Shown here piece after piece: positions 7,138-8,511 of a stretch of 20,003 nt of DNA. The position numbers were made by a program, and so were the translations under genes. A model generated the notes under the pieces. That model saw only the letters and a list, made by a program, of their open reading frames with translations. It was not told where the DNA came from and ran no database searches. The stretch is from Candidatus Heimdallarchaeota archaeon (lineage in GTDB: Archaea > Asgardarchaeota > Heimdallarchaeia > Heimdallarchaeales > Kariarchaeaceae): contig WAKA01000143.1 in the NCBI GenBank assembly GCA_015523565.1, forward strand, positions 1 through 20,003, read 5' to 3'. Positions within the stretch are counted from its first letter, which is position 1. Each line of letters begins with the position of its first letter.

Positions 7138-7144
7138 GAAGAAT

Positions 7145-7212
7145 GCCTCTTCAGAGCTCCAGATTCTGCTCATCGAAGTACTCCTCAAACCAGGGTCTCA
7201 TCATCAGAGGGC
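7145..7212 (-). ncRNA. Box C/D 2'-O-methylation guide sRNA
   Basis: Minus strand reads GCCCUCUG-AUGAUGA (C, 7204-7198)-GACCCUGGU-UUGA (D', 7188-7185)-GGAGUACU-UCGAUGA (C', 7176-7170)-GCAGAAUCUGGAGCU-CUGA (D, 7154-7151)-AGAGGC. The terminal stem CCUCU/AGAGG plus a 3-nt GAU bulge gives canonical K-turn geometry. It is about 68 nt, intergenic, with an upstream promoter. Confidence 0.82.
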
Positions 7213-7235
7213 TAAGTAGAATACGGAACAAACAA

Positions 7236-7248
7236 GTTTAACTTTTTG
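7236..7248 (-). promoter_or_regulatory. BRE plus TATA-like promoter of the C/D sRNA
   Basis: Minus strand CAAAAAG-TTAAAC; the TTAAA element is 25-29 nt upstream of the sRNA 5' G (7212). Confidence 0.55.
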
Positions 7249-7260
7249 GGTAGGGAGTTG

Positions 7261-8511
7261 CTAGGTGATGGAAAAGTTAGGTGAGGGGGATGAAGCATGA
7301 GAATTATTGATGAGATTTCTGATTTGCCAATAGATGACAGTGGAAAGAAAATAAAGGGAAGCAGTGGTCAAGATAGGAATTCTAAACCCTTTTGCATCAA
7401 CAGTCCGTCCTCCTGCAATATTTCCAAGGGCGAAGAAAACTTGCCAAGAGATTTGATTGATTGCAGAGATTTTGGATCTTTGTTTTCGGGGAGTATGTTC
7501 CATAAGTATTGCATTGGCAATGGGACCGACGCCATTCATCACGGCATTCCGAATGATCAGTGCGGCTAAGGCAAATAGGAGGGGGGGATAAGTGGAAAGC
7601 ACAACTAGAAGAGTGACAGAAACCAATTGATTTAATACAATGAGTTCAATTCCACCTAATTTTTCAGCAAGATTGGAGTTGACTTTTCCCCAGACGGCAG
7701 TGATGACGGAGACACCTGCCATAAGGAGGGAAAGGTTTGACAGGTTAATCCCATAAATGTCAAAAAAGAAACGAGGGAGGTAAGGAATTGTGAATCCAGC
7801 ACCAAAGCCGATGATAAATGCAGTGGCAAGCAGAAAATAGACTACTTTTTTGGAGATATTGGAAGCTATTGGTTTTGAGTTTTCTTTTTTGGTCTTTTCT
7901 TCCTCTTCGGAGAGGGCATGGGAATCACGGATGCCAAGGAGAGAGATAATGAACACTATGGAAAATGCGAATACTGAAAGACGGATATATGATTGGATGG
8001 CAGGGACGTCGAGGGTGGAGACATCAGAAGTGTCCAATCCTTGGAAATAGAAATATCCTAAAACTCCACCAAGTGCGTTTGATGTTTCAGAAAGCAGGAA
8101 TTGTGTACCAAAGACGCGGGTTCGGTTGTCAGCATTGATTGAATCTGAGAAGAGGGCATTCATTGTAGGGTTGGATGCACTGCCTCCAATTGAGATCAGG
8201 ATTTGACCTAAAAAAGCCAGAGACAGGGAGTTTGCAGTTGAGAGCAGGAGAATCCCAGTCAGTAAGATGCCAATTGAAGTTATTATAACGACATCCCTTC
8301 TGAAACGGTCTGCCAAATAGGAAGCAAGAAAGGAGAATGTAATACTAAGCAGTGAACTGAGACCAAAGATCAATCCCAAATCGGAATTGCTACCGCCAAG
8401 TCCGTATATGAGCCATGTCGTGGCAAACCAGAGGATACTAAAGCCCAAAGAATTGAAAACAGAGCTAACAAGAACAGCTTTCACGTTCTTGTTTCCATAG
8501 GCTTTTCTCAT
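7261..8511 (-). CDS. MFS transporter (12 TM)
   Basis: Two 6-TM halves with a charged central loop and motif A-like YLADRFRR and NLAEKLG. ATG 8511 is preferred because TTTAAA lies 26-31 nt upstream; the ORF track uses TTG 8532. Confidence 0.9.
   Translation of the reverse strand: MRKAYGNKNVKAVLVSSVFNSLGFSILWFATTWLIYGLGGSNSDLGLIFGLSSLLSITFSFLASYLADRFRRDVVIITSIGILLTGILLLSTANSLSLAFLGQILISIGGSASNPTMNALFSDSINADNRTRVFGTQFLLSETSNALGGVLGYFYFQGLDTSDVSTLDVPAIQSYIRLSVFAFSIVFIISLLGIRDSHALSEEEEKTKKENSKPIASNISKKVVYFLLATAFIIGFGAGFTIPYLPRFFFDIYGINLSNLSLLMAGVSVITAVWGKVNSNLAEKLGGIELIVLNQLVSVTLLVVLSTYPPLLFALAALIIRNAVMNGVGPIANAILMEHTPRKQRSKISAINQISWQVFFALGNIAGGRTVDAKGFRIPILTTASLYFLSTVIYWQIRNLINNSHASSPSPNFSIT

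Follow-up and report, generated by a model that had tools for sequence, protein, structure and literature searches.

A probable free-standing box C/D sRNA gene in a Heimdallarchaeia genome, predicted to guide methylation of intron-containing tRNA-Trp at positions 34 and 39

Introduction

What is encoded in the intergenic stretch that separates coaBC from an MFS transporter gene in an Asgard archaeon of the Heimdall group, and, if it is a guide RNA, on which form of its target would it act? Installation of Cm34 in tRNA-Trp differs by domain, relying on an intron-encoded guide in Euryarchaeota and on the protein Trm7 in eukaryotes. With this modification in place, UGA stop codons are not read by the CCA anticodon (PMC7668247). 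A preliminary description of the locus had proposed a free-standing, trans-acting box C/D sRNA placing the wobble C34 of tRNA-Trp(CCA) at its N+5 position, a proposal that the present analysis supports computationally through guide register, conservation and a target in the host.

The host genome (G000) is a MAG of 3.57 Mb in 233 contigs with ~90% completeness. The window, meaning the whole stretch of 20,003 nucleotides analysed here, is contig C143.

Results

A probable box C/D sRNA gene flanked by coaBC and an MFS transporter gene

The minus strand at 7212-7145 very probably carries a genuine free-standing gene for a box C/D guide sRNA (Table 1). On this strand the gene follows the MFS transporter gene at a distance of 50 nt, and it is convergent with coaBC (DFP and Flavoprotein domains). 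Box C and box D, already recognized in the preliminary description, were found again on this strand between complementary ends, and their sequence predicts a K-turn geometry. Box C can be read in two overlapping registers, the second of which leaves a 12-nt spacer to D′, so that both spacers of the sRNA have the canonical length of 12 nt. The loop between D′ and C′ comprises 9 nt. The internal boxes are degenerate in the host genus, while orthologues from G006, G008 and G010 display a canonical UGAUGA C′ box and CUGA D′ box. Together with a guide that can pair to a stable RNA and sets the target nucleotide opposite N+5, these elements are sequence features of an archaeal box C/D guide.

Two earlier readings of this sequence had to be revised. 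The D guide, initially taken as 15 nt long, is shortened to a working guide of 12 nt, since three of its nucleotides belong to the C′ box. A plus-strand hairpin, CAGAG-CUCCAGA-UUCUG, which had been likened to an anticodon arm, turned out to be coincidental, its CAG being merely the complement of box D.

Table 1. Features of the sRNA locus, in positions of the window
Feature	Position	Strand	Basis and remarks
Whole box C/D sRNA gene	7145..7212	-	~68 nt, terminal stem to terminal stem; direct reading, model R1 and orthologue alignment A1
Candidate promoter: purine run AAAAAG (7247-7242), then TATA-like TTAAAC (7241-7236)	7236..7247	-	24-29 nt upstream of the 5′ stem; inferred
Terminal stem, 5′ arm GCCCUC	7207..7212	-	CCUC pairs with GAGG
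Box C within UGAUGAUGA	7198..7206	-	Two overlapping registers, 7206-7201 and 7203-7198; AUGA invariant in A1
D′ guide GACCCUGGUUUG	7186..7197	-	N+5 = G7190, opposite C39 of pre-tRNA-Trp; GGUUU core invariant in A1
Degenerate D′ box AGGA	7182..7185	-	A1; orthologues show CUGA or AUGA in the same column
Degenerate C′ box UGAGCA	7167..7172	-	12-nt register, A1; alternative reading CGAUGA at 7175-7170
D guide GAAUCUGGAGCU	7155..7166	-	12 nt; N+5 = G7159, opposite wobble C34; AAUCUGGAG invariant in A1
Box D CUGA	7151..7154	-	Direct reading and A1
Terminal stem, 3′ arm AGAGGC	7145..7150	-	Pairs with the 5′ arm

The element upstream of the gene is compatible with an archaeal promoter of its own, and TTTAAA or TTAAAT elements occur 22-33 nt upstream of the sRNA in G003, G004, G006, G007, G014 and G018; this reading is only suggestive, because the DNA is AT-rich. 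Elsewhere in the window, positions 7306-7364 on the plus strand, antisense to the MFS transporter gene, gave a weak sR4-like Rfam match (12.5 bits, E 4.9) that is most likely due to chance.

Conservation of the sRNA

Orthologues were gathered by BLAST in two congeners and through the coaBC flanks in four more distant genomes, and a model (R1) was built on the resulting 7 orthologous sequences (alignment A1). R1 scored the host copy at 61.7 bits (7142-7211, E 1.2e-16) and matched 12/12 genomes of the family, with E values ranging from 7e-18 to 2e-7; matches were also obtained in families f2, f4 and f6. The conservation that had been called for as a check was thus found, with boxes and guide kept in relatives. 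Across orthologues, the cores of both guides, CUGGAG and GGUUU, are retained together with the boxes, while the arms of the terminal stem vary in their letters yet stay complementary (UCCCC/GGGGA, GCCCU/AGGGC, GACCG/CGGUC, GCUUUUU/AAAAAGC and CCUCC/GGAGG). The R1 matches throughout the family and these covarying stems set the feature beyond chance. Scanning the sRNA against Rfam returned as best match sR20 (RF01140), a Pyrococcus C/D sRNA family, with 16.1 bits (E 1.6) where the gathering score is 44. The likeness is confined to the generic box C/C′/D layout; the host sRNA is not a member, and no Rfam family covers it.

Comparison of the congener loci (L089:1916-1991 and L090:3804-3876) with window 7145-7212 revealed that the gene has been inverted in place within the host genus: convergent with coaBC in G000, it is co-directional and directly after the coaBC stop in G001 and G002. 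In G006, G007, G008 and G011, the sRNA and coaBC diverge, with the sRNA on the upstream side of coaBC. The arms of the terminal stem are short inverted repeats and might mediate such flips.

The host tRNA-Trp carries an intron free of C/D boxes

The predicted target was recovered on another contig, at G000:C50:7077-7212 on the minus strand (L133:178-313), as a 136-nt precursor with two inserts, a 32-nt intron in the anticodon loop and an insert of ~31 nt in the T-loop. After in-silico removal of both, ARAGORN names the gene tRNA-Trp(CCA). Its anticodon arm is GCUGG-CUCCAGA-CCAGC, and the unspliced gene reads GGCUCCAG in exon 1, AUUGAG...GAACAA in the intron and ACCAGC at the start of exon 2. 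A search of the 32-nt intron for UGAUGA and CUGA found neither motif. The guide is thus located outside the anticodon-loop intron in which the euryarchaeal-type guide resides, the sRNA being on C143 and tRNA-Trp on C50.

The two introns explain why standard searches had missed this gene: scans of the host genome with ARAGORN (with and without intron mode), with the Rfam tRNA model RF00005 and with a T-arm regular expression returned no tRNA-Trp. The contiguous target GCTCCAGATTC, searched in 41 genomes, gave chance matches in coding DNA only. Pattern searches for a tRNA-Trp that either lacks an intron or has a 37/38 intron with ATTY behind it returned chance matches and one tRNA-Thr, and nothing else; these patterns wrongly counted UUC as part of the stem.

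The T-loop insert is shared with the orthologues of G001, G003, G004 and G008 and absent from those of G002, G006 and G007. It carries GUUCCAGAUG, a potential 8-bp partner of the D guide that would keep the register seen at the anticodon; this match is probably a coincidence, since it is not conserved in G001 (GUUUCAGAUG).

Both guides pair across the exon-intron junctions of the host precursor

Pairing of the D guide with the precursor runs unbroken for 11 bp, including one G-U, through G30-G37 and the intron bases AUU; on the mature tRNA it reaches 9 bp. Direct reading confirmed the earlier assignment of the fifth guide nucleotide upstream of box D to the first C of the CCA anticodon. Of the target initially proposed, the anticodon loop of tRNA-Trp was retained and the 3′ stem strand was not: AUU is the start of the intron, and the real stem is GCUGG/CCAGC. 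The preliminary description had also anticipated a tRNA-Trp containing GCUCCAGAUUCUG and lacking a C/D-containing intron. The gene does have an intron without C/D boxes, but GCUCCAGAUUCUG is absent from the mature tRNA, because the 5′ part of the guide pairs with intron bases rather than with the stem. For the same reason, the unspliced precursor is the predicted substrate.

The D′ guide pairs with the precursor over 8 contiguous bp, CAA/ACCAG at the junction of intron and exon 2 (the slash marks the junction). Its register was taken from orthologues with canonical D′ boxes, which sets N+5 at position 39, a C in the host. The D′ guide pairs equally well with the mature tRNA and so does not discriminate between the two forms; the case for the precursor is made by the D guide only. 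From these complementarities, the sRNA appears to direct ribose methylation of both C34 and C39 in the intron-bearing tRNA-Trp.

Guides and precursors covary across genomes

A tRNA-Trp gene was recovered by BLAST and a 5′-half pattern in 59/83 genomes of the class, and for 28 genomes the guide could be paired with the genome's own pre-tRNA. All compared genomes are MAGs, and the exon 2 ends of multi-intron genes, especially in G069, were set by eye.

The N+5 nucleotide of the D guide faces C34 in 28/28 genomes with both genes. On the precursor the D helix spans 9-13 bp, or 7 in G063; on the mature tRNA it spans 6-10 bp. The precursor helix is the longer one in 26 genomes and equal in 2. Guide position N+10 and intron base +2 formed A-U in 12, C-G in 9, G-C in 2 and U-A in 1 of the distinct guide/target combinations, with a single mismatch. 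Intron starts differ by lineage (AUU in f1; AGU or AGA in f2; ACUC in f4; AAG in f5; GUA in f6) and are tracked by the D guide, which in G022 matches five intron bases, resulting in a 13-bp helix.

On the D′ side, changes at tRNA positions 41-43 between genera are matched by changes at guide positions N+7, N+8 and N+9 (CUGG/CCAG, UUGG/CCAA, UCGG/CCGA and others), and the helix reaches up to 14 bp in f4. Poor matches were observed in G003 (5 bp), G005 (4 bp; its copy is cut off by the contig end) and G009 (0 bp). Wherever the D′ guide can be read, N+5 falls on position 39, apart from G009, which shows no pairing at N+5; G015 and G020 provide no D′ anchor. By register, the sRNA carries a guide pair directed at tRNA-Trp positions 34 and 39, with the D guide in place in 28 genomes and the D′ guide subject to the G009 exception. 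When guides and tRNAs were shuffled among 12 genera, the observed pairing was reached in 21/20000 trials for D and 1/20000 for D′, counts that overstate independence because the compared genomes are related and that are not strict probabilities.

Other complementarities and alternative readings

The D guide was compared with the LSU rRNA of the host and the SSU rRNA of two congeners, and no site scored at least 9.5 of 12, which answers the earlier question of a better rRNA target for this guide. In the host genome, nine further sites, all of them apparently coding, could pair with the D guide over an unbroken 11 bp or more while including no more than one G-U; for D′, hundreds of sites equal the 8-bp match. 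As the D-guide match is not unique within the host genome, the target assignment rests on comparative evidence; it is drawn jointly from the RNA class, the double match on one 136-nt precursor, the register, the covariation and the homology.

A GC-rich, strongly self-complementary intergenic element of ~200 nt stands out from the AT-rich genome at C144:3780-3990 (L109:480-690), with no Rfam match at E ≤ 1. Its plus strand contains, at G000:C144:3863, a 12-bp complement (one G-U) to the host D′ guide. In the LSU rRNA, 13/14 nt of CGAACCAAGGUCUC (G000:C157:2626-2639, L108) pair with the same guide, with one G-U, one A.C mismatch and N+5 on a C. Both were considered as second D′ targets and set aside, since congeners do not conserve the guide nucleotides involved; the LSU rRNA match is probably due to chance.

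These sites, and the coding sites that match the D guide at 11-12 bp, are what could suggest that an rRNA, an mRNA or an unannotated RNA is the main target and that the tRNA-Trp match is incidental. We consider this extremely improbable, as it leaves unexplained the conservation of the guide cores across families, their covariation with pre-tRNA-Trp and the presence of homologues inside tRNA-Trp introns; the D guide moreover has no match in the rRNAs compared (host LSU, SSU of two congeners), and the D′ part that fits C144 and the LSU rRNA varies even within the genus. A second alternative keeps the tRNA and changes the role: with both guides placed exactly on the two splice junctions, the RNP might chiefly be a chaperone or checkpoint that clamps the exon-intron junctions and governs splice-motif folding and the timing of splicing, methylation being secondary or absent. 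The N+5 register at 34 and 39, kept across lineages apart from the D′ of G009, speaks against it, these being the sites methylated by the euryarchaeal homologue; a fibrillarin gene is present and no data require a non-catalytic role, which makes this possibility very unlikely.

The remaining question is which form of tRNA-Trp would be modified. Guidance of Cm34 and Cm39 on the spliced tRNA, with the intron complementarity as a relic of an intronic origin, would agree with the 8-9 bp that the D guide still obtains there, with a D′ helix of equal length and with the prediction of Pyrobaculum sR26:C34Trp on mature tRNA sequences (PMC6009581). A relic would decay, however; instead, N+10 and N+11 of the guide follow the lineage-specific intron starts AUU, AGU/AGA, ACUC and AAG with compensatory changes, five intron bases stay paired in G022, and the longer helix is that of the precursor in nearly all genomes. 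We therefore regard action on the mature tRNA as unlikely. The reading that we favor, to which we give a probability of roughly 0.8, is that of a free-standing double-guide C/D sRNA of ~65-70 nt acting in trans on pre-tRNA-Trp(CCA), with Cm34 and Cm39 predicted to form before splicing.

The guide occurs inside, beside and away from the tRNA-Trp gene

A C/D RNA with both guide cores was found inside the tRNA-Trp intron, 4-15 nt after CUCCAG, in G069 (f6), G063 (f5) and G118 (f23, another Asgard class). In genus g11 of f2, the sRNA shares the strand of tRNA-Trp and follows its 3′ end by ~75 nt, after a T-rich stretch, and in G022 it is ~270 nt from tRNA-Trp on the other strand. In f1, which includes the host, and in f4, it is unlinked to tRNA-Trp.

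The tRNA-Trp introns of f7 (L202, L203 and L210-L212) contain CUGA, followed at a distance by AAUGAUG, UAAUUUUGGAGC and GGUG. By its sequence, this element looks like half of an intronic C/D guide (C′, C34 guide and degenerate D), without a recognizable box C.

In f24, which belongs to another Asgard class, free-standing C/D sRNAs of G122 (L213) and G148 (L217) have a D guide, GUUUCUGGAGC(U/A) followed by CUGA, that is complementary to the tRNA-Trp anticodon loop. Only this D guide is conserved, the D′ guide being unrelated, which implies that escape of the guide from the intron may have occurred more than once.

A change from the intron outward is the parsimonious reading of these arrangements, given the euryarchaeal state. 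The guide occurs in three arrangements within one archaeal class. That, after its escape, the box-less intron was kept partly as a landing pad for the trans guide, through its first and last bases, enforcing methylation before splicing, is a tentative proposal whose chances we place just short of even.

Discussion

In the scheme that we infer, the sRNA would be transcribed and would assemble with L7Ae, Nop5 and fibrillarin into a methylation RNP. The host genome encodes these partners, with Nop5 (C56:12464-13141) adjoining fibrillarin (C56:13261-13926), and with L7Ae family genes on C95 and C157. This RNP would work in trans on the intron-containing tRNA-Trp(CCA) precursor transcribed from C50. 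The D guide, bound to exon 1 nucleotides 30-37 and the first three intron bases, would place C34 at N+5 for conversion to Cm34, while the D′ guide, bound to the last intron bases and A38-G42, would place C39 at N+5 for conversion to Cm39; splicing would follow methylation. The sRNA would be an orthologue of the guide encoded in the euryarchaeal tRNA-Trp intron, having departed from the intron in this Heimdallarchaeia order.

If correct, the locus points to an RNA-guided route to Cm34 in Asgard archaea. It offers a clear comparative picture of one guide both within its host intron and outside it, and the covariation of intron and guide after their separation provides a selective reason to keep a tRNA intron. 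The known chemistry is unchanged, and the value of the locus is evolutionary and one of genome annotation, as standard tools miss both the target, a tRNA with two introns, and the guide, an sRNA without an Rfam family. The sRNA and pre-tRNA-Trp also form an RNA pair open to in vitro reconstitution.

We found no published description of the presence of such a guide in Asgard archaea, of 34 and 39 guides retained outside the intron, of covariation between a trans guide and an intron, or of three arrangements in one class. Reviews from 2021 and 2024 describe the tRNA-Trp guide only as intron-encoded. The idea of a stand-alone tRNA-Trp guide is itself not new, since the free-standing C/D sRNA sR26 of Pyrobaculum was already predicted to target tRNA-Trp C34 (Lui et al. 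2018, PMC6009581). Like the host sRNA, sR26 is a free-standing archaeal C/D sRNA with the wobble C34 of tRNA-Trp at N+5, a likeness drawn from its description; it differs in coming from a crenarchaeal thermophile and in having its target predicted on the mature tRNA. The same study calls it rare for the two guides of an sRNA to share one tRNA, and does not name sR26 among such cases (PMC6009581).

Another relative in function is sR-tMet of Haloferax volcanii (Joardar et al. 2011), listed as a C/D guide (PMC4033218). It shares with the host sRNA the role of a trans-acting C/D guide for a tRNA wobble Cm34, but acts on elongator Met tRNA with a single guide and an atypical architecture, and does not derive from a tRNA-Trp intron. 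Its substrate is reportedly the intron-containing pre-tRNA-Met.

The closest known system is the euryarchaeal tRNA-Trp intron, which directs the formation of Cm34 and Um39 and can function in trans; the sources cited for it cover Haloferax volcanii, Pyrococcus sR50 and the studies of Clouet-d'Orval 2001, Bortolin 2003 and Singh 2004 (PMC7994747, PMC11408192, PMC4033218). Both systems consist of a double-guide C/D RNA directed at tRNA-Trp positions 34 and 39, and they would also share an intron-containing precursor as substrate and action in trans, as we propose for the host sRNA. Unlike the euryarchaeal guide, that of the host stands as a gene of its own, located on a contig other than that of tRNA-Trp, between the MFS transporter gene and coaBC; the host intron of 32 nt lacks C/D boxes and is solely part of the landing site; and position 39 is a C in the host where the euryarchaeal tRNA has a U.
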